Part shown: piece after piece, positions 10,141 to 62,499 of the stretch
Position numbering within the stretch: the first letter of the stretch is position 1
Layout of the letters: each line of letters begins with the position of its first letter
NCBI GenBank assembly: GCA_045606785.1
Contig: JAZUSN010000017.1
Coordinates: forward strand, 187-64,186
Source of the DNA: Acutalibacteraceae bacterium
GTDB taxonomy: Bacteria > Bacillota > Clostridia > Oscillospirales > Acutalibacteraceae
Reading direction: 5' to 3'
DNA: 64,000 bases
Program-made: the position numbers and the translations under genes
Notes under the pieces: generated by a model
Seen by the model: the letters and a program-made list of their open reading frames with translations, nothing else
Database searches by the model: none
Told to the model about the DNA's origin: nothing

Positions 10141-11760
10141 ATGAAACGATCCTTCAAGTTTACCGCACTGATTCTCACTTTGGCGATTATGCTGACTTCG
10201 CTGTGCGTTTTTGCATTTGCTCAGGACAGCAAAAACTACTATTACATCGACTCGGTTTCGGGTGACGATGCAAACAGCGGCTTAACGGAAAGCGAAGCTG
10301 TTAAGACGATCGCAGGCCTTAAAGACCTGCACATAGGCCCCGGAACGCACTTCCTTTTCAGAAGCGGCGGTGAATACGACTGTGCCGTAACACTCACCTG
10401 CAGCGGCACAAAAGACAACCCCGTGGTTATCTCGTCATACGGTGAAGGCGAAAAGCCCTTGCTTTATACAAATGATAATACAGAGGTCTTCAGGTTTTTC
10501 GACTGTTCATATCTCACGCTTTCAAACGTACATATCAAAGCTCCAAACGGCGGCGGAGTCTGGATAGATACGTATAATCAGACATCGGTAGGCATTACGA
10601 TAGACAACGTGTATTTTGAGGATATGCAAAACTACAAAGTACACTACCGTGACGATTTTTCAAACGGTGCAGCCCGCGCAAGAGCTGCAGTTATGGTTAA
10701 GGGTCTGCCCGCAAGATCACGCTACGCAGTAAACGACCTGACAATAACAAACTGTGAGGTTTATAACTGCGGTAACGGCTTTATGATCTGGGGCTCCTGG
10801 AACGACAGCCAGACACCCTGGTGCGAAACCGAAGAAGAGATCGACCCCATATACAACACCGGTATGCTCATTAAGGGCTGCTATTTCCACGAAATGGACG
10901 CCGAGGCTGTTGTTGTCGGCATGTGTGACGGCGCACTCGTTACCCATTGCCGCGCGATCAACTGCTGTCAGGGCGAGGGAGTTGACGAAAACGGCGAAAT
11001 CGAATATTTCACAGCCGCAATGTGGTTCTGGGGAAGCGAAAACAGTACAATACAGTACTGTGAGATCGCAGGACAGAAAAACGTCGGCGACGGAATGGCT
11101 GTTGACTTTGACTCACACACGAACAACTGCACATATCAGTACATCTACTCACACGACAATATGCGCTTTATGTGTAACAACCCCAATTACAGCGGTCACA
11201 GCGGCAACACCGTGAGGTACTGCCTCTCCGTCAACGACAACAAGGGCCGCTCAACAACAGCCGTAGGCGCTTGCGGCGAGCACAACTTCAGCTTTTACAA
11301 CAACACAATCATAAACTGCGGCGAATTCCAGTTCAAAAACCTTTATAACGCATACATCGCAAACAACGTTATCGTACCCATGCAGGGCTCTACTTTCGCT
11401 TATGACGTTGACTCCTCAAGAAACAACGTATTTGAAAACAACTGCTACTATAACGTCATTAATCCGCTCGTTGATTTGGGTGCACTCAACGTTCTGCCCG
11501 GCTTTGCAGGCACGGATTACACCAACCCCGAAAGCTTTAAACTCTCTGCAGACTCACCGCTCATCGGTGCCGGTGCTGCGACACACGGTGTTGAAACCGA
11601 CTTTTTCGGCAACAGCATTGAGAGTGTAAATATCGGCTGCTACGCAGGAACAGGCACAGACACGGAATATAAGCCTGAAGGATTTTTCGAAAGAATCATC
11701 CGCTTGATAAGAAACTTTTTTGAAACAATCAGACACGAAATCGCGGTTATATTCGACTGA
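10141..11760 (+). CDS. Secreted right-handed parallel beta-helix repeat protein (pectate-lyase fold) with amphipathic C-terminal tail
   Basis: Signal peptide MKRSFKFTALILTLAIMLTSLCVFAFA. Repeated N/C/G-rich beta-helix rungs (ITNCEVYNCGNGF, VTHCRAINCCQGEG). The tail is EGFFERIIRLIRNFFETIRHEIAVIFD. Confidence 0.8.
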   Translation: MKRSFKFTALILTLAIMLTSLCVFAFAQDSKNYYYIDSVSGDDANSGLTESEAVKTIAGLKDLHIGPGTHFLFRSGGEYDCAVTLTCSGTKDNPVVISSYGEGEKPLLYTNDNTEVFRFFDCSYLTLSNVHIKAPNGGGVWIDTYNQTSVGITIDNVYFEDMQNYKVHYRDDFSNGAARARAAVMVKGLPARSRYAVNDLTITNCEVYNCGNGFMIWGSWNDSQTPWCETEEEIDPIYNTGMLIKGCYFHEMDAEAVVVGMCDGALVTHCRAINCCQGEGVDENGEIEYFTAAMWFWGSENSTIQYCEIAGQKNVGDGMAVDFDSHTNNCTYQYIYSHDNMRFMCNNPNYSGHSGNTVRYCLSVNDNKGRSTTAVGACGEHNFSFYNNTIINCGEFQFKNLYNAYIANNVIVPMQGSTFAYDVDSSRNNVFENNCYYNVINPLVDLGALNVLPGFAGTDYTNPESFKLSADSPLIGAGAATHGVETDFFGNSIESVNIGCYAGTGTDTEYKPEGFFERIIRLIRNFFETIRHEIAVIFD

Positions 11761-37395: not shown

Positions 37396-38346
37396 TTATC
37401 CTCGGAACAAGCTTAAAATAATTGCCAGAGGGCCTGTAACCGGCAAGAAAACAATGCTTATTATTGACATTACCAACACAAACCCTGTCATTCCTCCGCC
37501 CCAGAGGATAAGACCCATATTATCTTTTACATTGTACTCGGTTATGGCACCAAGCATAAGTTCGTCCGTAGCTATAACGTTACCGTTTGCGTCAATTATT
37601 TTTGCAGTTACCGTTGACCAGCCCATAGTGAGCCAGGATACTTTGGCACCCGTTACCATGCCGGCTGAATCTTCTTTTTCTTTGAGTATGCCTGTTTTTC
37701 CTTCAATTGACCATTCAATCTTACAACCGGGTGACGGAATGTAATAATACCCTAAATACAAGTCACCCATACCGCCGGAAACAATCGGACCTTGGTGATT
37801 ATTTCCACCCAAACCTGATTTTAATACAATGTTACAGAAGGGTTCAGGCTCCTGACCGTTAAAGAACAGCTCAACATGGCCTTCTCTCAGCCTAATATCT
37901 TTACCGGAAACATTAGACCATTGTTCCTCGGTACCTGCGTAGCAAATTGCTATAAACTGCTTTCTGTCAGAGGAATAATACACACGGTTGGCAATCAGGT
38001 CTCCCCTGATATATTTGAGGCTCTTAGGCAAACTTATTTTGCAGTAAACAGGATTACTGAAATTGAATGCATTTGGGGCAATGCTTGTAACACCCTCCTG
38101 CAACGTAATAAAAACTATTTTTTTCTCATAATTCCTCCAAGGAGCACTTGTAATTTCACCCTCACCGCTGATGACAAGCTCGCCGTCATCGTAGAGTGTC
38201 CACGTGAGGTTTTCGCCCTGTGCGCCGCAAAAGCCGCTGTCGACAACCTTTCTTGTTTCCTCCGCCGCAAAAGCTACGCTTGCTGTAGTGAAAAGCAACA
38301 CAGCACAAAGAATTACGGACATAAATTTCGTAAATTTTTTGTTCAT
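37396..38346 (-). CDS. Secreted BspA-type leucine-rich-repeat protein with Ig-like module and C-terminal TM anchor
   Basis: Signal peptide MNKKFTKFMSVILCAVLLFTTASVAFAAEE. GENLTWTLYDDGELVISGEGEI...PW...LQEGVTSIAPNAF is the typical opening of BspA-like LRR proteins. C-terminal TM segment GFVLVMSIISIVFLPVTGPLAIILSLF. Confidence 0.75.
   Translation of the reverse strand: MNKKFTKFMSVILCAVLLFTTASVAFAAEETRKVVDSGFCGAQGENLTWTLYDDGELVISGEGEITSAPWRNYEKKIVFITLQEGVTSIAPNAFNFSNPVYCKISLPKSLKYIRGDLIANRVYYSSDRKQFIAICYAGTEEQWSNVSGKDIRLREGHVELFFNGQEPEPFCNIVLKSGLGGNNHQGPIVSGGMGDLYLGYYYIPSPGCKIEWSIEGKTGILKEKEDSAGMVTGAKVSWLTMGWSTVTAKIIDANGNVIATDELMLGAITEYNVKDNMGLILWGGGMTGFVLVMSIISIVFLPVTGPLAIILSLFRG
38259..38346 (-). 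repeat. 88-bp signal-peptide cassette, copy A
   Basis: Near-identical at the nucleotide level to 39276..39363 (a block such as CCTCCGCCGCAAAAGCTACGCTTGCTGTAGTGAAAAG...GCACAAAGAATTACGGACAT). The downstream coding sequences are unrelated. Confidence 0.85.
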
Positions 38347-38394
38347 TATTTTTTACCTCATCATAAAAATATCAAATGTTGCATTGTACTTATA

Positions 38395-39363
38395 TCATTC
38401 GTTGCTCTCGGCTCTGTGAGTTCCGTAATCCGGGTTACCGAACAAAGCTTTGAAAAAATCCGACACATACTCAAAAGAGTTTATCATTATAGCACCGCCG
38501 CCAACAGTACCCATACCGGGCACAATAATAAAAGCCAACAAACCCAATAAAAAATCTTTCGGAAATTCTTTCAAATTTCTTGTTGCAATTTTACGCTCTT
38601 TTTTAACTGCAACTTCTTCCGAAACAACTTCTATTGTCATTTCTTCTGTAAACACACCGTCCAAGTTTAACTGTATTACATATTTTCCGGGTTCTTCGGG
38701 AGTAAAACTATCCGAATCAATTTCTACTGTTTTTCCGTTTACCGTATACGAAAAAGTTGCTTCTTCAAGCCAACCCTTTCCGTAACCGCCGTTGCCGCCC
38801 TCGATTGATACCTCGATCGGTTTGCCGACTATTCCACAATAATTTATTATTCTCTCTTCAGAATCAGTCGGTTCTTCAGAAAACGCAACATAATTATATC
38901 GGCATCTAATATAAAAATTATTTGCATCTTTTACTCTTGAAGCGGGAATAACTAACTTTAAACTTTTATCTCCGTCAGCCGTTGCAAAAGCTCCGGCTGA
39001 AACTTCAACGCCCAGAATTTCCTCACAAAAATCCGTATTGATAATTATCTGTGGATAATGGAAATTGTTTTTCTCAAAAATCCTAATTTGGATTTTTTCT
39101 TCACTGACTTCAATATTTTCCGTAATTTGAGCATTTTCAGATGACCGAGTCTGAACAGTTATTTTCGGAATGTCACCTGACACTGAATATTTATTAGAGT
39201 AAGTTATAACAACCGTATCAAAATCAGAATAGTAATCACAACTGTAGGTTTTCTCAAGTTCTTCTGTCTGTGCGTCCTCCGCCGCAAAAGCTACGCTTGC
39301 TGTAGTGAAAAGAAGCACCGCACAAAGAATTACGGACATGATTCTCTTAAACTTTTTGTTCAT
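38395..39363 (-). CDS. Secreted protein with C-terminal TM region and FFKALFG tail
   Basis: Signal peptide MNKKFKRIMSVILCAVLLFTTASVAFAAED. C-terminus FLLGLLAFIIVPGMGTVGGGAIMINSFEYVSDFFKALFGNPDYG.... Confidence 0.75.
   Translation of the reverse strand: MNKKFKRIMSVILCAVLLFTTASVAFAAEDAQTEELEKTYSCDYYSDFDTVVITYSNKYSVSGDIPKITVQTRSSENAQITENIEVSEEKIQIRIFEKNNFHYPQIIINTDFCEEILGVEVSAGAFATADGDKSLKLVIPASRVKDANNFYIRCRYNYVAFSEEPTDSEERIINYCGIVGKPIEVSIEGGNGGYGKGWLEEATFSYTVNGKTVEIDSDSFTPEEPGKYVIQLNLDGVFTEEMTIEVVSEEVAVKKERKIATRNLKEFPKDFLLGLLAFIIVPGMGTVGGGAIMINSFEYVSDFFKALFGNPDYGTHRAESNE
39276..39363 (-). repeat. 88-bp signal-peptide cassette, copy B
   Basis: See 38259..38346. The offset between copies is 1017 bp. 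Confidence 0.85.
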
Positions 39364-39393
39364 TTTTTCACCTGCTTCAATTAAAATTTTCGG

Positions 39394-39969
39394 TTATTTG
39401 CCGCCCAAATGCTCCAAAAGGAAGCCGGCAATTGCATCAAATACTTTGGGGCTTGTTTTCGGAAAAAGAGCTGACAGAAAACCTGCAGACAAGAAAGTAG
39501 AAAAAATGCCAAACATACTGAAAGATGCTATAATACCTTCAAAAAAGAGTTCGACCCTCTCGGTGAAAGGAACAGGCTCCAATATACGTATTTCGATAGT
39601 ATCGATAGCCATTATATTACCGTCAGTATCAAGAATCTGAAACCCTATGAAACAGCTTCCGTATGAAACAGCCTTAACCTCAGCCCCGCTGACCCCGCCT
39701 TTATCATCCGGAATAAAATTAACCTCACAACACTCGCCGTTTGCATAGTATTTTATTTCAAACGGCTCATCTGTCGGCGGGCACCAATCAATCTCAACAT
39801 AAGTTGTCTGCCCTATTTTCATATCCTTCCTCAAATTGGCAAAGCTTGCATCAACAGAAACATACGGCGGTTCTTTTTTGTCTGCAGCTGTTGAACTGAG
39901 CGGAAAAGCTGCCGCCAAAAGCAAAACGCACAACAAAACAGACAAAACCTTTTTTGATTTTTTTAACAT
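39394..39969 (-). CDS. Secreted Ig-like protein with C-terminal hydrophobic anchor
   Basis: Signal peptide MLKKSKKVLSVLLCVLLLAAAFPLSSTAAD. FIGFQILDTDGNIMAIDTIEI resembles TVTAKIIDANGNVIATDEL of the 37396 product. C-terminus IIASFSMFGIFSTFLSAGFLSALF.... Confidence 0.75.
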   Translation of the reverse strand: MLKKSKKVLSVLLCVLLLAAAFPLSSTAADKKEPPYVSVDASFANLRKDMKIGQTTYVEIDWCPPTDEPFEIKYYANGECCEVNFIPDDKGGVSGAEVKAVSYGSCFIGFQILDTDGNIMAIDTIEIRILEPVPFTERVELFFEGIIASFSMFGIFSTFLSAGFLSALFPKTSPKVFDAIAGFLLEHLGGK

Positions 39970-42812: not shown

Positions 42813-45800
42813 TCATGCAGTTGCAATCTGGTTAACTACCTGCTTGAGAAGTGCAGCGTCGTTAAGAAGAACTGCGTCTGCAGCATCAATAACACCGTCG
42901 TGGTTCGGGTCAGCAGCCATCTTCTCGTATTCGTTGAGACTGTTTGCCGAAAGAAGACCGTTATTGATCATTGTAACAAGGAATGAGTCGTTAGCATCGG
43001 TTGTACCGTTGCCGTCAAGGTCACCGTAGATGATTACGGTGTACTCAAGTCTGCAGGTTGTGCCATCCATAACCTTGATAACAGAACCTGTACCAAGTAC
43101 GGAATCCTCACACTGAATAGTACCTGTGCCGATAACCTCTGCATAGTAAGTCTTGAATGTGTCGAGTGTAAGCTCTTCAGCAAGACCGTAAACTATTCTC
43201 TTCTTTGTTTCAACAACTGTTGTTGAACCGTCTACGGGAGCAAGCTCACAGTCTGTTGTTGCAATGTCGAGAGAAACGAATGCGTTGGAAACGTCGGGAA
43301 CAAGGTTAACTGTATCAAGCTTGTATGCTGTACCGTTTTTAGTTACGCAAGCAACTGATGTGGGAACAGAATTTGCACTGTTTGTGGGAGACTTACAAAT
43401 TCTCTCATCAATGAAGATAAGACCGTCTGTAACAGCAGCATCAATACCTGTGTTAACAGTAAGCTTGAGTGTGAATACGTGTGTCTTCTCGTTTACGATA
43501 ACAGGAGCCTTCGCGCTTGTTGTTGCGAAGTTACCTGTAGTAATACGGGTACACTTGATATTATCGGGATTAAGCGGAACGTTATCCTCAAACTTGCTTG
43601 CCCAGTTAGTAGCAGAATAGTTTGTAGAACCTGACAAAGTTGTAGCTGCAAGTGATTTAATATAATCGGAAGTTGTGTTTGCAACAGTTGCATTTCTGAC
43701 GTTACCGGCAACTGTAAATACACGGTTATCAAACATAATACCGAAGATACCCTGGCCTGCATAGTAGTTTGTCTTTATGCTTACTTCAACCTCGATAGCG
43801 TCGCCTTCCTTGATGGATGTAGCGGGTACACGCTTGCCGTTGATTGTCTTGTAAACGTCGAGATAATAGTTACAGACTGTGTTAAGAGTCCAGACAGCTT
43901 CAACCGTAAGATTACCTGAAGGCATTGTCTTAAGGTCATAGGGCTGGCCGTTGAGAGTCCAACCGTCGAAGAGGTAGTTCTCCTTAGTGGGAGCTTCAAT
44001 GGAGATAGGTGTGCCGTAAGGAGCTGTGATAGCGTCGATTGCTGTGCCGCCGTCTGTATCAAAGTAAAGTGTGTATGTGTTTACACTGTACTGAGCATAG
44101 AGAGTGTGATGTGCATCAAGCTCTACAGGAACAGCTGATGTAACCTGATCGCCACCCTCGGGCTGTGTGAACCAGCCGATAAATGTGTGACCGTCCTTCT
44201 CGGGTGTGGGAAGCGGACCGTAGGTTGAGCCGTATGTTACGGAGTAAGCAGGTGTTGAAACCACGCCGTTCTCACCGGGATCAAGAGTGATGTCATATAC
44301 CTTCTCTGTCCAACCTGCGTAAACAAGCACTTCAGCATCCGAATCACCAAGGTCAGGCATTGTTGTGTATGATGCGGGCTGTGTGCAAGCAGTATCGTAA
44401 TACCAGCCTGTGAACGTATAGCCGTATCTTGTGGGAACAGGCATTTCGATTGCATCACCGTATTTAGCTGTAATAGCTTCACATGCTGAACCGAGACCTG
44501 AATCGAAGCGGAATGTGTAGCTTTCAACGTCACTCCAATGTGCGTAGAGATTCTCTACGTAGTTGATTGTAACGATGGTATCAGCAACGATCTGCTCGCC
44601 GCCTGTAGCATCGGAGAACCAACCGAGGAATGTATGACCGTCTCTTGTTGCAACGGGAAGCTCGCCGTACTCTACACCGTAGGTAAGCTCTTTGGATGTA
44701 ACATCAACAGAGCCACCGTTGGGATTAAAGTATGCATAGTAAGTAACGGGTGTGTAAGTGAAAGTTACTGTCTGCTCATCAGCAGAAAGTGTAACGGTCT
44801 GATACTGCTCTGTGGGCTCATAACCGGGATGAACGGGAGCAGTTACACGAACGACATATGTTCTTGTGCCGTCGTATGTCTGTGAACTGAGTACACGGTA
44901 GCCGCCGGCATAGCTTGCGTCCGGAGTCTGAGCGACGACTGTGTAACGTGCAGTCTTGAGAGTAAGACCGTCGATTGCGCTCTGGATAGAAGCAGCCATC
45001 TGATCAACCGCCGTCTGCCTGCTTGCAGGAAGATCATACTGAACAAGTGCGATAGCATTTGTAACATCGACGAATGAGTTATAGTTATCGGGATTAAGCT
45101 CGTTGACATATGCAACAAGTGCATAGATCTGAGAGTAATCTGCATAGGCACTTACAAGTGTATTAACTGCAAGCTCAATATTTTCGATAGCACGACTAAC
45201 TCTTGTCTGAGTAGCACTGGGATTAGCGAAAACTTCGAAAGCATTCTTGATAACAGAAACGTATGTTGTGAAGCCGCCGCTGTAATCAAATGCCTGCCTG
45301 TTCTTAGCCATTTCTCTTGCGAGAAGCGCACCAAGCTCATTCTTAACAGCTACGTGTTCGCCATCAGCTGAAGTGAGCACATAAACATATGTTGTGTAGG
45401 CTACGCCCAAGCACTCATATGTGATTTTGGCAGTAATTACGCTGCCTGTAGCACCTGTAGAAGTGATAGTTGCTGTATAGTAGCCATCATCCTGAAGTGC
45501 AAAATTTGATGAGATAACTGCGTTTTCAAGCTCAACAGCAATGTTTGTAAGCTCATTGGACGCAGCATCTTTGATTTGGATAACCGTGCTCTGACTGACA
45601 TTAACCGTACTTGCAGAACGGATATCAAGAGCAGATGCATAGTTAGTGTTGATAACTGTAAGACCTGCTTCAGCAGCAGCAAGAGCTGTTACTGCGTTGG
45701 CCTTTTCTTCTGCTGTGGCAGAAGTGTTGCTATTGACAAAAGTAGCGTTAGCAAGCGCTGCGGAATAGACAGCATATGATTCAGGTGTATATCTTGCTTC

Positions 45801-45947
45801 CGGGAAGGAATCATGATTATTGATCATATACTGAAGAACCGAAGCTGTGTAGCTTGCGGCATCAGCGACGATGCCGCAAGCGAGAGTACTAAATACAAGT
45901 GTCAATGCAATAAGAAAGCTTGTTAATCTTTTAAGTTTCATTTGCAT
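42813..45947 (-). CDS. Secreted multidomain protein: FIVAR-like helical repeats, Listeria-Bacteroides (Flg_new) repeats, beta domains, C-terminal type-I dockerin
   Basis: Signal peptide. Helical repeats such as YTPESYAVYSAALANA. Four repeats ending GHTFLGWF / GYTFTGWY / GHTFIGWF / NYLFDGW. Dockerin duplicated Ca-binding loops DLDGNGTTDANDSFLV and DPNHDGVIDAADAVLL. Confidence 0.85.
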   Translation of the reverse strand: MQMKLKRLTSFLIALTLVFSTLACGIVADAASYTASVLQYMINNHDSFPEARYTPESYAVYSAALANATFVNSNTSATAEEKANAVTALAAAEAGLTVINTNYASALDIRSASTVNVSQSTVIQIKDAASNELTNIAVELENAVISSNFALQDDGYYTATITSTGATGSVITAKITYECLGVAYTTYVYVLTSADGEHVAVKNELGALLAREMAKNRQAFDYSGGFTTYVSVIKNAFEVFANPSATQTRVSRAIENIELAVNTLVSAYADYSQIYALVAYVNELNPDNYNSFVDVTNAIALVQYDLPASRQTAVDQMAASIQSAIDGLTLKTARYTVVAQTPDASYAGGYRVLSSQTYDGTRTYVVRVTAPVHPGYEPTEQYQTVTLSADEQTVTFTYTPVTYYAYFNPNGGSVDVTSKELTYGVEYGELPVATRDGHTFLGWFSDATGGEQIVADTIVTINYVENLYAHWSDVESYTFRFDSGLGSACEAITAKYGDAIEMPVPTRYGYTFTGWYYDTACTQPASYTTMPDLGDSDAEVLVYAGWTEKVYDITLDPGENGVVSTPAYSVTYGSTYGPLPTPEKDGHTFIGWFTQPEGGDQVTSAVPVELDAHHTLYAQYSVNTYTLYFDTDGGTAIDAITAPYGTPISIEAPTKENYLFDGWTLNGQPYDLKTMPSGNLTVEAVWTLNTVCNYYLDVYKTINGKRVPATSIKEGDAIEVEVSIKTNYYAGQGIFGIMFDNRVFTVAGNVRNATVANTTSDYIKSLAATTLSGSTNYSATNWASKFEDNVPLNPDNIKCTRITTGNFATTSAKAPVIVNEKTHVFTLKLTVNTGIDAAVTDGLIFIDERICKSPTNSANSVPTSVACVTKNGTAYKLDTVNLVPDVSNAFVSLDIATTDCELAPVDGSTTVVETKKRIVYGLAEELTLDTFKTYYAEVIGTGTIQCEDSVLGTGSVIKVMDGTTCRLEYTVIIYGDLDGNGTTDANDSFLVTMINNGLLSANSLNEYEKMAADPNHDGVIDAADAVLLNDAALLKQVVNQIATA

Positions 45948-45988: not shown

Positions 45989-48900
45989 TTAGCCGATTCC
46001 CAGTACGTTGGATACAAAGAATCCGAAGATACGGCTTAAGAATGCCATAATCTGCTGGAAGAATGACTGCTCAACAGGCTGCTGTTCTGTGGGCGGTGTT
46101 ACGCCTGTATCTACATCAGCGCCGGAGTTTGTTTCTGTGTCGTTGGTTGTAACTCTTGACCAGCGAGCGTAAAGAGTTGAGTAGTAAAGTGTTGTAACCT
46201 TAACTGTCTCGTCAACCTTAATACCGCCGGAAAGCTTGTTGTACCAGCCGACAAACTCGAAACCGTTACGTGTGGGAACAGGAAGGTCAGCATATGTGCT
46301 ACCGTATGCAACGTTTGCTGTTACGGGATCAACCGTACCGCCGTTTGCGTTGAGTGTTACTCTGTAAACATCGGGTGCATAGTTAAACTCAACAACAACG
46401 CCGCCCTTTGTGATAGTAACGAGCTTTGCCTTATCTGTTGACTTATAGCCCATGATTTCGGGAACGTTAACAATAACCTTTTCACCGATATCACCGTAAA
46501 TAGTGTCTGTGCTGAGAAGGATAACCTGCGGAACCTCGTTGCCATCCTCATCGATTACTGTTGCGGGATGAAGAATGCCGGAATTGTCGTAGCAACGGAT
46601 GATGATACGATCCTGTGCGGGCTCAAGGTTATCAATAGCTGCCTGGAGGTTGTCAATAATCTCGTTAACGAGTGACTGCTGAAGAACATCCTGTGAGAAG
46701 TCAATGCTCTTAAGGATATCTGTAACAGGGCTGAAATCCTGATAATCTTCAGGATTGAGTGAATTTGCAATAGAGATGAGCTTGTGAAGCTCTTCGAAAT
46801 CAGCTGACTTGTACTCAAGCCAATCGATTGCTTCAAGAAGGTTGATGTTAGCCTCATCGATCTGAGCCTGTGTAACCATCGGGTTGTTGAGGACTGCAAC
46901 CGCTGCCTCAAGATCCTTCTTGTAGATATCCCAACCGCCTGAATAGAACCAATCTTGACGGCAAGAAGAGATAGCTGCATCAACTGTAGCGCGAAGCTGG
47001 CTCTTATCGTAAGCAATGACACGAAGGTAGAACTTCGGAGCGGAGTTTGTCTGACCGCCGTTTGTTGCTATAGCTGTAACTGTGGGAGTGATAAGAGTTG
47101 TAGCAGTCTCGCCTGCTGCGGGAAGATTACCGGAGAATGTGAAGTTTCTGGAATCATCCTGGTTGAGTGTTACACCGTAGGAAGACGGCTCAACAACAAC
47201 GTTGGGATCGGAGCTTGTAACGTCAACATTGATAGATGAGAAAACACCGGAACCGATATTACCTGCAGAATAAGAATCTGCCATCTTGGTAAACGTAAAC
47301 ATAAGACCGGGAATCTCTTGGTAGTATCTGTAGATACTGCGGTCTGCGTAAACCGTACCCATGGGAACAGTTGCAAGATCGCCTGCGTAACCAGACCAGT
47401 TGTGATCTACGTGGTAGTTAAGAACACCGCTGTAGTCTGTGGACTGGATTCCGTATACACCTAAATGATACTTATTACGGATGTAGCCGGGGTAGCATGT
47501 ATTAACGTCAAAGTTGATTTCGTAGTCGCCTGCAGATACGAACGTGTAAGCATATGCTGTGTATTCCATACCTGTTGAGGGCTGAGTAAATTTGATCGTA
47601 GCTGTGATTACTGAATAAAGGGTTGCAGCAGCAGGGTTAATCTCCCAGCAGTAGTAATCGCCTTCTTCATACATCTGGCCAATCGTTGCGCCGCCGTTTA
47701 CAGTTGCAGATACGTTAGTGATAGCTGCGCCTGTGGACTCACGGAACTTAAGGACAGTCGTTGTATCTCTGGAAACAACGTCATCGATAATGACTTCTGA
47801 ACCGAGCTCGTAGTTAAGCTCCCAGAATTCAAGGCTGTTGAGAGCTGTACCGAGTCTTTCAGATACTCCGTCAACGATGTACTGATCATCAAGGTCGTAG
47901 TCACGGTCAATTGCAAGAGCCTCAGCATAAGCTGCTTTGAACTCTGCGATAGAGTGTGTGGTATAGAGTCTATAATCCTCTTCGGGGATAGCTTCAGCTC
48001 TCTTTATCATAACATCAAGAACGTTATAGCGCGCAAGAGAGATGTAAGCCTTAAGTCTGTTCTGTGACTTGAAGAGCTCCTGTCTTGCGATAGAAATCGC
48101 AGACTGTTTAGCATTAGGATCTGCTGCTACCTTATAAGCGTTTGCAAGTGCTTCGCTGTAAAGTCTCCATGATCTGTCAGTATAGACCTTGTTGCCTGCG
48201 CCGTCATCGTTTGCTTTAGCGTTGTTTGCCTCTGCATAGTTGATCTCGTAAGCAAGCTGGATCTTACAGGTCTCTGATCTGGGAGTCATCTCATCGTAGT
48301 AGTAGCCGAGTCTGTAGTAAAGGTTTTTAATCTCAAGAGCTGTAACGGAGTTCGGATTTTCGTTATATCTCTCTACGAGACTTACACAGTCTGAATATGT
48401 GTCGTCAAAGTTGGTGAACTCGAAGAGGTATTCGTAATCCTCTTCGCCGTATGTGAAGTAGCCGTCATCACTGTATGACAGGCCATCGTTTGACGGCATA
48501 TACTGCTGCATGAGCGTCTGAAGGTCTCTCATAGTCTTATTGGGATAACCAACGGGAGCGTTAACTGTAAAGTTATCGTTCTGGCTGAGACCGATGAGTG
48601 AACCGATAAGCGGAATAAGTGTCGGGAAGTTGTAATCTCTTTCTGAGTAAAGAGCAGAGAGAAGGTTACCTGCAAACTGGCCGAGCTTGCCGCCCTTTGT
48701 TGAGCCGTAAACAAGATCCTCAAGGTTCTGTGTGCTTGCGGGGATGATCTCAAGGCCGTTCATAAGGCTTGAAAGGATACCGCCGAGAAGGTCGAGAACA
48801 AAGTTTACAACGGGCTGATTGAGGATAGCATCGGGAGAGGAGTTCTTACCGATGAAGCTGAGGATCTTCTCAATATTGAGTGTCTGAACACCGTCAAGAA

Positions 48901-50623
48901 TTGCGCCGACGATAAGGGACTCGGATACTGTATCGTGAGTCTTCTGAATCGTAGTGAGCGTGGGATCGAGAAGTGTGAAGATTGTAGCATCAAGCTTCTC
49001 CCAACCTGTCATACCTGCAAGGTTCTGTCTTGTGTTGAAGATGAAGCCGAACTCTGCAACAAGCCAGCTAGCAAGGCAATCAACCATCTCGTCGAAGCTT
49101 GCATCGAATGGAATGTTGATATCGATGAGTGAATTGAGGAGGTAGATGAGGTAATCAGTACCGATTTCAATCCAAGCACCGTTTTCGGGATCAAGTGTAC
49201 CGTCTTCGATCATGCCGTAGTAGTCATTCTCGGGAAGAAGGTCAATAACAAGGCTGATGAGTATATAAGTAAGACATTCCTGAATAGTATCGCAATCGGG
49301 AAGGAATCTGACGCCTGCGAAGAAGTCGATACCGGGAGCTATAAGCATAATGATGTAGGAAATGAACTGATCAGTTGTCCACTCCGTCATATCCGGGAAC
49401 TCCGCATCCTCGGGGATAACCTCGGGAAGAAGCATCTGAAGGAGACCGGGGCCAAGCTCACGGAGAAGGCTAACGATATTTGCATAAAGCTCATCGTTGA
49501 TATCAATACCGTGATCTGTGAAAGCGATAATGCTGTAAAGAGCAGCAGGCTTCTTGATAACGTTACCTGCATCATCCGTTACAGTCTCACCTGCAAGGAG
49601 CCATGTAAGGGCTTTTTCAAGCTCGATTACAGGGTACTCTTCTGCATCGTAGGGATAGCCGAGACCAAGGTAGTCGTTGATGATACCGATAATTGTGGGA
49701 AGAAGACCGGGCTCTGCAGGATTACCGTAGGGCCACTCTTCGCTTACTTCGATATCCAGAGTATCGGGAAGTGACTCAACAAGTGTGGGAACAAGGATGT
49801 CAACCATAAGTGAGTCGATAGCGTTCTGGATAAGGTCGTAAGTAGAGCCTGATGTGATAGAGGTCTTGCCTGCCATGCTGGGCAGGAAGCCGGAGTAAGA
49901 CTGAGTTGAAACGTTGTAATCGCCGATAAGGAGCTGATCAACAACATCCTGAAGCAAACCGTCGATAGTAAATGAATCAATGGTGACACCGGCGGGAAGA
50001 GTATCGATCTCAGGCTCTGACTCTGCTTTGAGAAGGCTGTTATATATCAATGTATATATCATTTCCTTAAGGAAAGCAGGTATGTGATACAGGAAGCCCA
50101 TATCCGGATCATCAGGCGGAATAACGAGCTCCATAATGCCGCCGAAATCAATCGTACCGTTTACAAGCTTCTCAAGTGTGGGTCTGTTGTCGCTGAGAAA
50201 CTCAAGAAGAGCATAGAAGACTTCGGAGTCTTTATGTGTTTTTCTTCTGGGCTCAACAATCGCAGACTCATCAAGGTCCTTGAGGTCACCGACAAGGCTG
50301 AGACCCTGTGCAAAGTTGACCAGACCCATATCGAGAAGGTCTGAAATTGACTGGAATGTGTTATCAACTGAAGTAAGGTTGATTCTGATAGTACCTAAGA
50401 TACTAAGGTCAATCTCCTCGTTGATATTGGCATCGTACAGCACTGTATCCAGGAAGTCGAGCAACATTGAGCAGGACTGCTCATATGTATAGTACGGCTT
50501 ACCCAGGCTGTCGTAGCCGGCGGGTGATGTGTACGCCTCATAAGCTGAAGCTGTGCTTGCCATTGACGTCGCAAGCATAACAGCAGCCAGGAGGATACAC
50601 ATCAGCTTTTTGACTTTTTTCAT
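45989..50623 (-). CDS. Giant (1544 aa) secreted protein: about 870-aa unrecognised helical N-terminal region, FIVAR-like repeats, one Flg_new repeat, T/P linker, amphipathic C-terminal tail
   Basis: Start chosen at MKKVKKLMCILLAAVMLATSMASTASA (ATG 50623, GGAGGTG RBS) rather than the ORF-track start at 50791. Flg_new repeat ...NGFEFVGWYNKLSGG. The tail is SFFQQIMAFLSRIFGFFVSNVLGIG. Confidence 0.85.
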   Translation of the reverse strand: MKKVKKLMCILLAAVMLATSMASTASAYEAYTSPAGYDSLGKPYYTYEQSCSMLLDFLDTVLYDANINEEIDLSILGTIRINLTSVDNTFQSISDLLDMGLVNFAQGLSLVGDLKDLDESAIVEPRRKTHKDSEVFYALLEFLSDNRPTLEKLVNGTIDFGGIMELVIPPDDPDMGFLYHIPAFLKEMIYTLIYNSLLKAESEPEIDTLPAGVTIDSFTIDGLLQDVVDQLLIGDYNVSTQSYSGFLPSMAGKTSITSGSTYDLIQNAIDSLMVDILVPTLVESLPDTLDIEVSEEWPYGNPAEPGLLPTIIGIINDYLGLGYPYDAEEYPVIELEKALTWLLAGETVTDDAGNVIKKPAALYSIIAFTDHGIDINDELYANIVSLLRELGPGLLQMLLPEVIPEDAEFPDMTEWTTDQFISYIIMLIAPGIDFFAGVRFLPDCDTIQECLTYILISLVIDLLPENDYYGMIEDGTLDPENGAWIEIGTDYLIYLLNSLIDINIPFDASFDEMVDCLASWLVAEFGFIFNTRQNLAGMTGWEKLDATIFTLLDPTLTTIQKTHDTVSESLIVGAILDGVQTLNIEKILSFIGKNSSPDAILNQPVVNFVLDLLGGILSSLMNGLEIIPASTQNLEDLVYGSTKGGKLGQFAGNLLSALYSERDYNFPTLIPLIGSLIGLSQNDNFTVNAPVGYPNKTMRDLQTLMQQYMPSNDGLSYSDDGYFTYGEEDYEYLFEFTNFDDTYSDCVSLVERYNENPNSVTALEIKNLYYRLGYYYDEMTPRSETCKIQLAYEINYAEANNAKANDDGAGNKVYTDRSWRLYSEALANAYKVAADPNAKQSAISIARQELFKSQNRLKAYISLARYNVLDVMIKRAEAIPEEDYRLYTTHSIAEFKAAYAEALAIDRDYDLDDQYIVDGVSERLGTALNSLEFWELNYELGSEVIIDDVVSRDTTTVLKFRESTGAAITNVSATVNGGATIGQMYEEGDYYCWEINPAAATLYSVITATIKFTQPSTGMEYTAYAYTFVSAGDYEINFDVNTCYPGYIRNKYHLGVYGIQSTDYSGVLNYHVDHNWSGYAGDLATVPMGTVYADRSIYRYYQEIPGLMFTFTKMADSYSAGNIGSGVFSSINVDVTSSDPNVVVEPSSYGVTLNQDDSRNFTFSGNLPAAGETATTLITPTVTAIATNGGQTNSAPKFYLRVIAYDKSQLRATVDAAISSCRQDWFYSGGWDIYKKDLEAAVAVLNNPMVTQAQIDEANINLLEAIDWLEYKSADFEELHKLISIANSLNPEDYQDFSPVTDILKSIDFSQDVLQQSLVNEIIDNLQAAIDNLEPAQDRIIIRCYDNSGILHPATVIDEDGNEVPQVILLSTDTIYGDIGEKVIVNVPEIMGYKSTDKAKLVTITKGGVVVEFNYAPDVYRVTLNANGGTVDPVTANVAYGSTYADLPVPTRNGFEFVGWYNKLSGGIKVDETVKVTTLYYSTLYARWSRVTTNDTETNSGADVDTGVTPPTEQQPVEQSFFQQIMAFLSRIFGFFVSNVLGIG

Positions 50624-50911
50624 AAAAAAGCACCTCCATAGATTTTGCTGGTTTGCGTCGGGCAGGAATGCCTCTATGTACAAACTAATAGCAAATACCG
50701 ATACCACTAGGTATACAGTTATACTATTATGCATAGTGATTGTATCATAAGATTTATGCAAATGCAAGTTAAATAGCAATAAAAAAATCAAATTTTTTAC
50801 AAAAAATTGTACATTGTGTTAAGTTAGAATTATCATTACCACAAAATATAGTAATCTGTCGGAATACAGACACATTTCATTTCATCCAAGCTGTTACAAA
50901 TCACTAACGTC

Positions 50912-50933
50912 ACAAGTGTGTTAACACACTTGT
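50912..50933. promoter_or_regulatory. Perfect 22-bp palindrome (candidate operator) upstream of the sORF
   Basis: ACAAGTGTGTTAACACACTTGT, checked as its own reverse complement. It overlaps a TTGTCA -35-like hexamer about 70 nt before the sORF start. Confidence 0.45.
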
Positions 50934-51001
50934 CAAATCCGACTAAATATGTTACCATTGTTTAAATGCATATTACATTAAATGATAAGGAGTGACCAAA
51001 C

Positions 51002-51178
51002 GTGAAAAAAGCTATTGCATACCTAACATCCGCAGCTATTGTTTTATCTGCAACCGCCATCCCATCTTTGGCCGCAACGGTTGACCTGCCACCGGAGTTT
51101 GCAAGCCTCACACCGATTCTTGAAATCGTACTTAAGATTGTAGAGTTCCTTTCAAAAATTATCGGCTTTTTCAGCTGA
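51002..51178 (+). CDS. Unannotated 58-aa secreted peptide with amphipathic C-terminal helix
   Basis: Below the ORF-track cutoff. AAGGAG lies 8 nt upstream of GTG 51002. The translation is VKKAIAYLTSAAIVLSATAIPSLAATVDLPPEFASLTPILEIVLKIVEFLSKIIGFFS. It has a signal peptide with an AxA-like site (SLA-A), a stop at 51176-78, and a strong terminator follows. Confidence 0.65.
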   Translation: MKKAIAYLTSAAIVLSATAIPSLAATVDLPPEFASLTPILEIVLKIVEFLSKIIGFFS

Positions 51179-51193
51179 TGTATAAAGAGAACG

Positions 51194-51229
51194 AAAAGAG
51201 GATGTCTCGCGCAGAGACATCCTCTTTTT
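51194..51229. terminator. Bidirectional rho-independent terminator
   Basis: AAAAGAGGATGTCTC / GAGACATCCTCTTTT is a 15-bp perfect stem. Confidence 0.9.
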
Positions 51230-51248
51230 ATTGTTTTGAAGTTTAAGA

Positions 51249-52829
51249 TCAATCTTTTTTATCGCTGTTTTCCGAAACAGCCTTCTGTGCAGCCTTAACC
51301 TTGTCGAGTGACTCCGCATCACCCTGAGTAACCTCAGAGGTCATCAATGCACGGCGGGCAAGCAGCTCTTCGTACATCTTATCGCGCTTTTTACCCGTAA
51401 GATCGTAGAACAGAAGCGGAATAATACCGAGTGTTGTTGTGATAATGGGAAGGACGGTACACATAGCAAACAACCAGAACTTTGTTGAGTCAGTCTGAGC
51501 AGAACCGCTTGTGTAAGCGTTGATATCATAGCCGATCCACTTTTTAAACATCGTCTTAACAGCACCGCTGAGTACGCCTGCAAGCTTCTGCGCAAGGCCC
51601 TTTGCAGCTGAGGTCATAGCCTCTGTGCGGTAGCCATTCTTCCACTCGCAGTAGTCCATAGCTTCGTTGTACATTTCACTGGGGATAACGTTACGAAGGC
51701 CGTAGAAGAACATATATACGGTTTCCTGAAGTGCAAAAGCAATACCCATAGGAACTACCTTCTTGTAAAGGCCGTTCTTTTTGCCGCCTATGCAGCCGAA
51801 CAGGAATACGGGAATATACGTAATATCAATACTGTACTTACCAAGGATAGCAAGCGCACGTGTTGACATTTTCTTACGGAACCACGGAACAAGTGCATAA
51901 GAGAACGGGTGGACGATTGCGCCGGGGATACCAACGACCGTGCCGAGAGTAGCAAAGTTGAGAACGTCAATGAAGTAATCCTTCTTACTGCCGCTGAGAA
52001 GCGAGAAGCTGCTGAGCGTATCTGAAAGAGTGAGAAGAAGAATAGGCTTATTGTTGATGATTGACTTAACGCCTTCTTTGATACTAGGTGTTTCAATCGA
52101 CTGCATAACGCGCTCTTTTGTGATTGAAGCAAACCAAAGTGCTGCGATACCGCTGACAAGCGAAGTAAATACACCCATGCCCATAAATACAGAACGATAA
52201 GCTTTTTCGTAGCTACCTTTAGCAACGATCTGGTTACCGATAAGGTCAAGGACAACGTCCATTATCTGTTGGGGTAACTTCTCACCGAGGAAGCCCGAGA
52301 AGAACTGAGCCTGCGTAATCAGTCGCGTTCGTTCCAATGGGTTTGGTGTTATGGTTGCGAGCATACCCGTCTGTGCAAAGCCACGGAAAGTGCCGCCCGT
52401 TTCTCGCAGAAGTGCAAGAAGAAGGTAGAAGAAAAACTTTGCCATTGAATCGCCGGCCGCACTCGGGAAGAGCGCAGGCATAAGCCAATAAAGGCAGGTT
52501 GCGATCGTGCCGGGAATACCGAGAACGATAAGGTAGGGCTTGAACTTACCCCAACGGGTACGCGTTTTATCAACTATAGCACCCGAAAAGGTATCATTCA
52601 CAACGTCCCATATACCGTTTATGAAATTAGCTATTGTCTGAAGCTCCAGATTAAGTTTGAAGATCGTGGTAATGAAACGCTCGGAATATGTATTGATATT
52701 AAAGCTTTGGGCCATATCAAATATTACATAACCGACAGTTTCTTTAGTACCGACGTAACGTCTGTTTTGCTTGGCGTAAAAGTCTTCGGTGTACTGCGGT
52801 GCATCAGCCGCTTTTGTCTTTTCTGCCAA
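51249..52829 (-). CDS. GPH-family (MelB-like) glycoside/pentoside/hexuronide:cation symporter
   Basis: DVVNDTFSGAIVDKTRTRWGKFKPYLIVLGIPG is the GPH signature, with about 12 TM segments. The start is proposed at TTG 52829, 8 nt after AAGGAGG. The ORF-track ATG at 52949 would add 40 aa. A hydrophilic C-terminal tail of about 55 aa is present. Confidence 0.8.
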   Translation of the reverse strand: MAEKTKAADAPQYTEDFYAKQNRRYVGTKETVGYVIFDMAQSFNINTYSERFITTIFKLNLELQTIANFINGIWDVVNDTFSGAIVDKTRTRWGKFKPYLIVLGIPGTIATCLYWLMPALFPSAAGDSMAKFFFYLLLALLRETGGTFRGFAQTGMLATITPNPLERTRLITQAQFFSGFLGEKLPQQIMDVVLDLIGNQIVAKGSYEKAYRSVFMGMGVFTSLVSGIAALWFASITKERVMQSIETPSIKEGVKSIINNKPILLLTLSDTLSSFSLLSGSKKDYFIDVLNFATLGTVVGIPGAIVHPFSYALVPWFRKKMSTRALAILGKYSIDITYIPVFLFGCIGGKKNGLYKKVVPMGIAFALQETVYMFFYGLRNVIPSEMYNEAMDYCEWKNGYRTEAMTSAAKGLAQKLAGVLSGAVKTMFKKWIGYDINAYTSGSAQTDSTKFWLFAMCTVLPIITTTLGIIPLLFYDLTGKKRDKMYEELLARRALMTSEVTQGDAESLDKVKAAQKAVSENSDKKD

Positions 52830-55219: not shown

Positions 55220-55402
55220 ATGAAATACAATCACAGCGAAGAAAAGCGTTCGAAGCTGTCAAACAACGAAATTGAAGATGACGTATTTGATATGGTAAAC
55301 AAATACGGTACGTATAACATTCAGCCGACAAACGACACGGATAACACATTCCCTGCAATTGCACAGGGGCTTGCAAAAAAGCACCGCAGAAAACACAAAT
55401 AA
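55220..55402 (+). CDS. Small hydrophilic protein, function unknown
   Basis: 60 aa: MKYNHSEEKRSKLSNNEIEDDVFDMVNKYGTYNIQPTNDTDNTFPAIAQGLAKKHRRKHK. GGGTGA RBS and a downstream hairpin. No family recognised. Confidence 0.5.
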   Translation: MKYNHSEEKRSKLSNNEIEDDVFDMVNKYGTYNIQPTNDTDNTFPAIAQGLAKKHRRKHK

Positions 55403-55457: not shown

Positions 55458-55607
55458 TTATGCAGAAATCATACCGATAAGATCCTTAACAGCAGCGACA
55501 ATCTTATCAACGATGCCGGACTCCTGAATCTTAGTTACGATCTCCTTAACTGTTGCGATAACCTCTTCCCAGTTGATCTCCTTGAGCATTTCCATGATCT
55601 GATCCAT
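55458..55607 (-). CDS. Leaderless 49-aa acidic amphipathic peptide (paralog 1)
   Basis: MDQIMEMLKEINWEEVIATVKEIVTKIQESGIVDKIVAAVKDLIGMISA. GGAGGTGAAA RBS. The internal ATG at 55607 is preferred over the ORF-track start at 55673. Confidence 0.7.
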   Translation of the reverse strand: MDQIMEMLKEINWEEVIATVKEIVTKIQESGIVDKIVAAVKDLIGMISA

Positions 55608-55763: not shown

Positions 55764-55901
55764 TTATGCAAAGAGACCCTGGAAAAAGCTGATGATTGCC
55801 TCAACAACACCTGAATCCTTAATCATACCTACGATGTCAGCAGCCTTACCTTCGTTAAGGAAGTTAAGAAGCTCCTCTACAAATGCGAGAATCTGATCCA
55901 T
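55764..55901 (-). CDS. Leaderless 45-aa acidic amphipathic peptide (paralog 2)
   Basis: MDQILAFVEELLNFLNEGKAADIVGMIKDSGVVEAIISFFQGLFA. GGAGGTGAAA RBS. An imperfect hairpin plus T-run lies downstream at about 55700..55745. Confidence 0.7.
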   Translation of the reverse strand: MDQILAFVEELLNFLNEGKAADIVGMIKDSGVVEAIISFFQGLFA

Positions 55902-61518: not shown

Positions 61519-62499
61519 TTAGACGATGTTACTGATGATAATAAATGCAAAATAAGCCAACGCAAGAACCATCGGTATTGAAACGAAGAAACCGAACGTT
61601 CTCCTGCGCGTACTCAGACCCGATTCATCGCGCCGCATCTTCAGGCCGTACCTTCTGCCATAAGCGACCAGAGCAATAATACCTGCCGCAACAACTCCGA
61701 TACATGCGATGTTGTATATGATGTAACTCACATCGGGAACGGCATATTCCAGCTCGGTAAAGAACACAGAAAAACCGTTATTGAGAGCGTGAATGATAAT
61801 GCCGACCCAAAGGCTGCGCGAATACACAACCGCACAACCTATCACAAAGCCTGCCAAGGATGCAAAAACAATATTGGCCGGACGAACGTGAGCAAGGCCA
61901 AAAAGCACAGAGGTAGCAATGACCGCGAAAAAATCGCCGTAACGCCTGAGCGGCTGCATAAGAACACCGCGGAACACGAACTCCTCAACCAAAGGAGCAA
62001 TAACCGCAGCACAGACAAAATCCATTACGACGTCGAGCGCGTTGGTTGAAGGAACAGGCTGCGGAGTGTAGCCGCCTATACCGATAAGGTCAAACAAGGT
62101 GCCGACAATGTTGGCAATATAGTTTGAAGCGATGCAGAAGCCGAAGCCTGCTGCAATCAGCAGCACAGCTTTGTCAAAGGAAATCGGAGTATGAAACGGG
62201 AGAGCTTTGAAATATGAAAGCCTGCCTCTTTTTTTGCTGTAGAGCCAGAAAGGTAGACCAAGCGAGATAACCGTAAAGAACAAGCCGCCCGACGCATACT
62301 GAAAAGCAGGGTTGCTGTAATACGCATCCACAAGACCGAACAGCTTAAGAAAAACGAACAGAACCTCCTGCAAGGCGAAGTAGCCGAGCAGGCACCAGCC
62401 TGCAACAGCGCTGTGCTTGCGAAGAGTGCGGTATCTTTCGCGTGACGGGTCGGGAGAGAGCGGAGCCGCATAAACAAATTCCTGTGCCATATGCGTCAC
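61519..62499 (-). CDS. CPBP-family intramembrane glutamic endopeptidase (CAAX protease-like)
   Basis: APLVEEFVFRGVLM, FGLAH and HALNN motifs in a polytopic protein. Confidence 0.85.
   Translation of the reverse strand: MTHMAQEFVYAAPLSPDPSRERYRTLRKHSAVAGWCLLGYFALQEVLFVFLKLFGLVDAYYSNPAFQYASGGLFFTVISLGLPFWLYSKKRGRLSYFKALPFHTPISFDKAVLLIAAGFGFCIASNYIANIVGTLFDLIGIGGYTPQPVPSTNALDVVMDFVCAAVIAPLVEEFVFRGVLMQPLRRYGDFFAVIATSVLFGLAHVRPANIVFASLAGFVIGCAVVYSRSLWVGIIIHALNNGFSVFFTELEYAVPDVSYIIYNIACIGVVAAGIIALVAYGRRYGLKMRRDESGLSTRRRTFGFFVSIPMVLALAYFAFIIISNIV

Follow-up and report, generated by a model that had tools for sequence, protein, structure and literature searches.

A conserved small gene beside a giant surface-protein gene in Acutalibacteraceae encodes a predicted exported helical peptide

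Results

The small gene and its expression signals

We analyzed a stretch of 64,000 nt (the window) from contig JAZUSN010000017.1 of an Acutalibacteraceae bacterium (GenBank assembly GCA_045606785.1, positions 187 to 64,186 of the forward strand). The subject of this work is a short open reading frame (sORF) at 51002..51178 on the plus strand, which starts with GTG, encodes 58 amino acids (aa) and lies between the gene of a giant protein of 1544 aa (45989..50623, minus strand) and an MFS_2 transporter gene. An earlier note on this DNA, made from the letters alone, had proposed the 58-codon frame, and its coordinates and translation match ours exactly. The sORF is divergent from the giant gene, and 378 bp separate it from the giant gene's ATG (50623, minus strand), as stated in that note. 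The sORF promoter is located at 50930..50958 on the plus strand and consists of the -35 box TTGTCA, a 17-nt spacer and the extended -10 element TGTTACCAT (TG-n-TACCAT). All 14 aligned upstream regions have, at a fixed spacing, the TTG of the -35 box and the T-TG-TA--AT of the extended -10 without change. A ribosome-binding site (RBS), AAGGAG, was found at 50987..50992 (plus strand) as proposed earlier, at a distance of 9 nt from the GTG and not the 8 nt given then. The loci of the window's clade carry (A)AGGAG or AGGAG at equal distance, and both RBS and start codon are conserved in the 14-locus alignment.

The sORF is directly followed by a terminator hairpin at 51193..51229 with T-runs on both sides; its stem has 16 bp, one more than had been claimed. 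The hairpin is bidirectional and ends both the sORF on the plus strand and the convergent MFS_2 gene on the minus strand. Every orthologous locus has a hairpin and T-run 3' of the stop codon. As the hairpin sequences differ from locus to locus and the hairpin recurs, the terminator is kept by structure and not by sequence. As far as can be read from these signals, the sORF is a monocistronic small gene with its own promoter and terminator. An open frame of 58 codons is by itself not significant against chance; it is the conservation described below, and not frame length alone, by which the sORF was judged to be real.

The right arm of a perfect 22-bp palindrome, ACAAGTGTGTTAACACACTTGT (50912..50933), overlaps the -35 box TTGTCA, which confirms another observation of the earlier note. 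This is the sole perfect palindrome with arms of at least 8 nt in the 64-kb window. Of 100 Markov-1 random windows, just one had arms of 11 nt or more, and in 100 shuffles the palindrome had no match with up to 3 mismatches. No further palindrome copy or half-site cluster was found in the window. The palindrome is shared with the near-identical strain L006 only (giant protein 98% identical, sORF product 95% identical) and is absent from 12 of the 13 other aligned loci, where the conserved part of the region is the -35 box portion only, (C)ACTTG(T/C). Since it is lacking in all relatives but L006 and has no second copy, we ruled out that it is a conserved operator of the sORF family. It may be a repressor site recently acquired by the strain lineage.

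Homologues and selection

Among 5.8 billion proteins searched, we recovered 11 homologues (58-63 aa, 66-95% identity), one of which is annotated at NCBI (MBQ5824039.1, "hypothetical protein IIW48_04455"). Neither the sORF product nor the product of the antisense frame discussed below is on record for the genome of the window, of which another protein is on record at 100% identity. The description of the sORF as unannotated is therefore correct for its own genome and incorrect elsewhere, where orthologues have been called as genes. Scanning one genome per GTDB species gave 13 loci, 11 of them new: 7 complete orthologues with RBS, 4 with a less certain start or incomplete, and 2 repeats of loci already in the set. 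All 13 are from metagenome-assembled genomes and, where the host is named in the record, from ruminant gut. Taken together, no fewer than 13 species-level genomes carry orthologues of 58-64 aa; all come from animal gut and belong to Acutalibacteraceae or to unclassified Clostridia. Conserved sORFs beside homologues of the giant gene, a check named in the earlier note, do exist. A profile search over 1.84 billion representative proteins gave 7 clusters, all of 58-91 aa, which ruled out that the sORF module serves as a C-terminal domain of large proteins elsewhere. The sORF family is confined to one clade and is very narrow.

The earlier note had also named the pattern of synonymous and nonsynonymous changes as a check, and by this measure the frame is under purifying selection. 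Across nine loci the mean proportion of synonymous differences (pS) was 0.59 and that of nonsynonymous differences (pN) 0.19, i.e., pN/pS of ∼0.3 with synonymous sites near saturation. The mature region is under tighter constraint than the signal peptide, with pN of 0.09-0.17 versus pS of 0.33-0.74 in the comparisons with the window (near-identical L006 left aside). We concluded that the sORF is very likely a real, expressed coding gene.

The opposite strand carries an open reading frame (ORF) of 96 aa at 50962..51252 (minus strand), and the earlier note had allowed that this frame might show the better coding signatures. A rival reading is that the plus strand holds no gene and that either the antisense ORF or a non-coding RNA is the real feature. 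The antisense frame is indeed stop-free over the 174-nt overlap in nine of nine loci, and its pN/pS of 0.37 is near the 0.32 of the plus frame. The two frames have their third codon positions in common, so the antisense frame stays stop-free and its pN/pS is not discriminating. The other signatures are worse on the minus strand: the length open on this strand ranges between 46 and 125 aa among the loci, neither start nor RBS is conserved, and in the window the frame runs through the terminator. The codon-usage log-likelihood, trained on coding versus shadow frames of 22 long window genes, was +5.9 bits for the plus frame and -10.7 bits for the antisense ORF, and the mean BLOSUM62 score of substitutions was +0.42 and -0.68, respectively, i.e., non-conservative in the antisense frame. 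The plus frame, in contrast, has a conserved promoter, RBS, start, stop and signal-peptide anatomy. For an antisense RNA of the type I toxin-antitoxin kind, we looked at one weak minus-strand promoter-like site (51186..51158, 9/12 matches); four such sites were found in the region versus 3.2 expected, which is within chance. Rfam gave nothing at gathering score for the intergenic region, only sub-threshold terminator-like matches, and a known RNA element was ruled out there. On the grounds of its varying extent and start, its codon usage and its pattern of substitutions, we reject the antisense ORF as a real gene, and we consider a non-gene on the plus strand barely credible.

Signal peptide and mature peptide

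Codons 1-24 (51002..51073, plus strand) encode a predicted signal peptide, MKKAIAYLTSAAIVLSATAIPSLA, which was judged by inspection. Its n-region is MKK, its h-region has 17 residues, and its c-region is P-S-L-A, whose small residues S (-3) and A (-1) fit a signal peptidase I substrate. This is the anatomy of a cleavable Sec signal peptide, in agreement with the earlier reading of the first 24 residues. Among orthologues the h-region varies, PS(L/F)A|A is kept in nearly all, and conservation of the c-region extends over at least 25 of them. There is no cysteine in the 58-mer or in its homologues (hence no lipobox), so the product is not a lipoprotein. The sorting motif LPXTG is absent from the product, and it does not have the make-up of PEP/PEF-CTERM proteins, as what comes after its "PPEF" is an amphipathic helix containing E and K, with no basic tail. 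On the sequence features above, the product is probably exported and cleaved after PSLA(24).

The predicted mature peptide of 34 aa, ATVDLPPEFASLTPILEIVLKIVEFLSKIIGFFS, is encoded with the stop codon at 51074..51178 (plus strand) and was examined by conservation, pN/pS, AlphaFold2 (AF2) prediction and hydrophobic moment. The family alignment shows PS(L/F)AATVDLP(P/A)EF...PI-E--L---EF---I as conserved or invariant. Residues P38-S58 form a predicted amphipathic helix of 21 residues, hydrophobic at 5 of every 7 positions, on which the conserved E41, K45, E48 and K52 make one narrow stripe. The helix bears a small-xxx-small motif, (S/A)51xxx(G/S)55, which is S51xxxG55 in the window. Its hydrophobic moment is 0.58 (18 residues) and its mean hydrophobicity 0.49. 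The mature peptide carries a net charge of -2, and its orthologues one of -2 to -3. AF2, run on the family alignment, predicted helices at residues 2-26 and 31-57 with pLDDT of 65. The product is thus most likely a small exported helical peptide, to judge from these predictions.

The best-conserved segment of the product is not the helix; it is ATVDLPPEF, right after the cleavage site. This segment might be released as a pheromone, the sORF product being a secreted signaling pro-peptide comparable to PapR and other RRNPP pro-peptides, which have a Sec-exported precursor of similar size (∼50 aa, in a range of 40-60 aa). The segment directly after the cleavage site is invariant, and VDLPPEF recalls the PapR heptapeptide signal ADLPFEF (PMC2441798), which is a likeness and not a test. 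In RRNPP pro-peptides, however, the signal is at or near the C-terminus, whereas VDLPPEF is N-terminal (mature residues 3-9), and the remainder of the sORF peptide is a helix under strong constraint and not a disposable pro-region. Some members have another residue in place of the glutamate (LPPVF, LPDAF). Neither the conserved neighborhood nor the examined proteins of the window showed an RRNPP/TPR-HTH receptor gene or an Opp permease. A pheromone role is, in our view, highly improbable.

The helix suggests another function. Phenol-soluble modulins (PSMs) and delta-toxin are likewise short and mostly made of one strongly amphipathic, Phe/Ile/Leu-rich alpha-helix, and the moment of the sORF helix, like its hydrophobicity, is comparable to theirs (0.60 for PSM-alpha3 and 0.66 for delta-toxin). 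The sORF product could be a free membrane-active or surfactant peptide of this kind, exported by Sec and acting on membranes, vesicles, biofilm matrix or hydrophobic feed particles independent of the giant protein. The strong promoter, RBS and terminator of its own suggest abundant and autonomous expression, and the likeness to the giant's tail (see below) is not conserved among relatives. PSMs have no signal peptide and exit through a dedicated ABC exporter, and most lytic peptides are cationic or neutral. The sORF peptide differs from PSMs in its Sec signal, anionic charge (-2 to -3) and lack of sequence homology; no adjacent ABC exporter (Pmt-type PSM export) was found in the neighborhoods. 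Its invariant non-helical ATVDLPPEF would have no role in a simple surfactant, and the very narrow family also argues against one. We regard the free surfactant peptide as unlikely.

Searches against known families returned little. Pfam gave no match to the sORF product. NCBIfam gave only a sub-threshold match to JUQZ_fam_ocin (E = 0.15, 12.3 bits versus a cut-off of 40) over residues 1-32, mostly the signal peptide, and no match with the mature peptide alone. A profile search of the PDB gave none at E up to 10. Foldseek found no match at E up to 0.001; its high-TM matches were small transmembrane hairpins such as PsbZ at E > 5. The literature held nothing specific on a C-terminal amphipathic anchor or on this small protein in Ruminococcaceae/Acutalibacteraceae. 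The weak ocin match raises the possibility of a Sec-dependent class II bacteriocin. Such bacteriocins (enterocin P type) exist (PMC6700250, PMC3546714) and resemble the sORF product in being small helical peptides made from a small Sec-signal precursor, with an unmodified mature peptide of 30-50 aa. Those peptides are cationic, often with YGNGV and a disulfide, and have an adjacent immunity gene in variable loci; the sORF product has none of these features, being anionic and without YGNGV or cysteines. The sORF is monocistronic, with no immunity or bacteriocin transporter gene beside it; its neighbors are the giant and MFS_2 genes in every locus, and its position is fixed in the core synteny of at least 13 species and not in a variable island. 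A bacteriocin is therefore very unlikely in our judgment. The sORF defines an orphan small-protein family without curated relatives. Its class, small exported amphipathic peptides, is familiar; unusual traits within the class are the Sec signal, the anionic mature peptide, the invariant N-terminal segment and the fixed site beside a giant surface-protein operon.

Genomic context

In the clade of the window the gene order is epimerase, ACPS, a dockerin protein of 1044 aa and the giant (minus strand), followed by sORF (plus), MFS_2 (minus), a sporulation-type sigma factor (plus) and DcuC (minus). The sORF is therefore divergent from the giant gene and convergent with MFS_2. A second clade with a ∼60%-identical giant protein (L021-L023, L025, and L031) has the order MFS_2 (plus), sORF (plus), giant (plus), in which the sORF is co-directional with both neighbors. 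A comparison with window positions 50624..51248 indicated that the ∼300-bp sORF unit has been inverted between the two clades, and at every orthologous locus the sORF is still found between the MFS_2 gene and the giant surface-protein gene. In the 60%-identity clade it is located 40-60 nt 3' of MFS_2 on the same strand, with its own terminator kept.

This proximity bears on a further explanation, namely that the product is an uncleaved small membrane protein with an N-terminal signal anchor and a second helix on or in the outer leaflet, which might modulate the adjacent MFS_2 protein. The location just downstream of MFS_2 in the 60%-identity clade would fit, as would the AF2 two-helix hairpin and the Foldseek matches to transmembrane hairpins mentioned above. 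On the other hand, the sORF is convergent with MFS_2 in the window clade, and in L031 it has its own near-consensus promoter, which overlaps the stop codon of MFS_2. PS(L/F)A|A is conserved beside an h-region that varies, a hallmark of signal peptides that are cleaved. We find an uncleaved membrane protein improbable.

Likeness to the tail of the giant protein

The giant protein ends in an amphipathic tail (SFFQQIMAFLSRIFGFFVSNVLGIG, encoded at 45992..46066, minus strand), a segment that resembles the sORF helix. In the alignment of KIVEFLSKIIGFF from the sORF helix with QIMAFLSRIFGFF from the last 25 residues of the giant, 8 of 13 positions are identical. Among the 381 six-frame ORFs of at least 60 aa in the window, the giant's tail is the top BLOSUM62 local match to the sORF peptide, with a score of 43 that was reached by 0.5% of shuffled queries (p ∼0.005). 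Alignment of the two families with hhalign gave a probability of 58% and P ∼1e-4 over 18 columns, and the motif (S/T)xxx(G/E) is common to both helices. The tail likeness appears to be real in the window genome and to reflect either old, eroded homology or convergence.

The likeness is narrower than first described. According to the earlier note the mature peptide was essentially only the tail motif; in fact the resemblance covers 13-18 residues, and the best-conserved part of the peptide, ATVDLPPEF, is missing from the giant. Nor could we find one tail module shared by other proteins of the window, as had been suggested. The tail of a 500-aa protein scored 33 against a shuffle mean of 33.6, i.e., at background, and was rejected as the same motif. 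The 539-aa beta-helix protein (10141..11760, plus strand) was rejected as well; it ends in a distinct charged amphipathic helix, FFERIIRLIRNFFETIRHEIAVIFD, which is conserved and family-specific, the HEIxVIFD end being kept in all 120 listed homologues (the best 120 of 905 matches).

The giant protein and other features of the window

Upstream of the giant gene (50625..50790, minus strand) are its conserved promoter (TTGCAT-17-TGTGATACAAT) and a leader of ∼120 nt that is strongly conserved. Just 3' of the -10 element, ATAATAGTGTA is nearly invariant even at 46-52% identity of the giant and has no counterpart in Rfam; it may act as an operator or be an RNA element of the leader. The N-terminal 1000 aa of the giant (47624..50623, minus strand) were predicted by AF2 to be mostly helical (pLDDT 74), with no PDB fold match at E up to 0.001 and local matches only to FIVAR-type modules of StrH/ZmpB and, weakly and at low TM, to CAMP factors. 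The giant family is narrow, with 47 full-length homologues of almost invariant length (1530-1608 aa). Just 3' of the giant gene lies the gene of the 1044-aa protein (42813..45947, minus strand), which has Flg_new repeats and a dockerin-like C-terminus. The pair is kept even in the most distant relatives (L026-L029), which suggests a candidate cohesin-dockerin-type surface complex, read from the dockerin partner only.

Two paralogous acidic helical sORFs without signal peptide are located at 55458..55607 (49 aa, MDQIMEMLKEINWEE...DLIGMISA) and 55764..55901 (45 aa, MDQILAFVEELLNFL...AIISFFQGLFA), both on the minus strand and each with a GGAGGTG RBS; both are without a match in Pfam and NCBIfam. 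In L001-L003 and L011, genes of 49 and 45 aa are called at the corresponding position. Their C-termini loosely recall the tail of the 58-aa product. An ORF of 60 aa at 55220..55402 (plus strand) has a strongly basic C-terminus (...AKKHRRKHK) and no family match, and a 60-aa gene is called at the matching position in several relatives (L001, L009, and L011). An Rce1-like/CPBP intramembrane protease (61519..62499, minus strand) has FGFFVS in its C-terminal region, as in the giant's tail (IFGFFVSNVLGIG), probably by coincidence. Three consecutive genes at 37396..39969 (minus strand) encode proteins of 316, 322, and 191 aa with similar signal peptides and hydrophobic Gly/Phe-rich C-terminal regions, which may be a further surface or membrane-anchored set.

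Discussion

We propose the following course of events for the sORF product. The gene would be transcribed from its sigma-A-type promoter with extended -10, translated from a strong RBS and GTG start, and ended by a strong terminator. Sec would export the 58-aa precursor and signal peptidase I would cut after PSLA(24), freeing an anionic peptide of 34 aa. Its N-terminal ATVDLPPEF would be extended, and residues 38-58 would form a very hydrophobic amphipathic helix that holds the peptide on the cytoplasmic membrane's outer face (at the interface of membrane and wall) or at other hydrophobic surfaces. There the peptide could self-associate or pair helix-to-helix with similar amphipathic helices. 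The most likely partner would be the C-terminal tail of the giant protein, with the peptide as a small accessory or anchoring subunit. That the peptide acts as a membrane-interface helix seems to us evenly balanced. A specific partnership with the giant's tail is possible but rather doubtful. The part of competitor, nucleator or partner of tail-bearing proteins, which the earlier note had suggested, is speculative. An exported interface helix, possibly accessory to the giant protein, is overall the best explanation that we can offer, and we put it forward tentatively.

The giant's tail is the most plausible partner because the two genes remain adjacent despite the inversion, because the similarity is the best in the window, and because the two helices have a small-xxx-small motif in common. 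Several observations weigh against this partnership. A hidden Markov model of the mature peptide (hmmsearch) does not retrieve the giant's tail, and the tail identities drop to 2-5 of 18 in most related genomes. The similarity of the two tails was 24.6 within and 22.0 between genomes (permutation p = 0.04, uncorrected for phylogeny; 14 genomes); we rejected co-evolution of the two tails, as the similarity matrix shows only this marginal diagonal excess. The shared residues use different codons (for example, Ser TCA versus AGC), with the same codon at only 2 of 8, so there has been no recent gene conversion; this possibility, or a recent duplication between the sORF and the giant's 3' end, was rejected also for lack of DNA similarity (local score 9). 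The two amphipathic helices may have converged. In the clade with giant homologues of 46-52% identity, an amphipathic tail is present and no sORF lies within 6 kb; this clade has kept the partner dockerin protein and has other upstream neighbors. The entire block from epimerase to DcuC is syntenic, and so the adjacency may reflect only shared ancestry. With the sORF directly 3' of MFS_2 in the other clade, it could equally belong with the transporter.

Low-molecular-weight penicillin-binding proteins (PBPs) such as PBP5 of E. coli provide a precedent for C-terminal amphipathic-helix membrane anchors of exported proteins. Both the giant's tail and the peptide helix look like anchors of this kind, amphipathic, in-plane and terminal in an exported polypeptide. 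Here, unlike in PBP5, the helix also occurs as a free-standing gene product, there is no homology, and the membrane placement is predicted. A second comparison is with the csc clusters of Lactobacillus, in which small and very large secreted proteins with a shared short C-terminal module are thought to build a surface complex (PMC1534035). In both cases the gene of a small secreted protein adjoins that of a very large one. A WxL or LPXTG module is common to the csc proteins, which are also co-transcribed, whereas the present pair has a weak helix likeness of 13-18 residues and the sORF is a separate transcription unit. Going one step further, the peptide might be the free-standing half of an undescribed sortase-independent holding system, in which the helix (SxxxG, E-K-E-K), assembled in the outer leaflet, docks the giant's tail and perhaps other tail-bearing exoproteins. 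It would then be a dedicated non-covalent anchor subunit of a cohesin/dockerin-type surface complex in uncultured Acutalibacteraceae. We consider this extended scheme quite unlikely.

Small secreted proteins are routinely missed by annotation. The sORF is not a surprising kind of object; no gene had been called for it in the genome of the window, although purifying selection acts on it in over a dozen uncultured species from rumen and gut. At present it can be regarded as a well-supported orphan gene with a narrow distribution, which is useful for annotation and makes a reasonable candidate for peptidomics. If it is true that the peptide anchors or organizes the giant protein, this would be a mode of surface attachment that needs neither sortase nor S-layer-homology domains.

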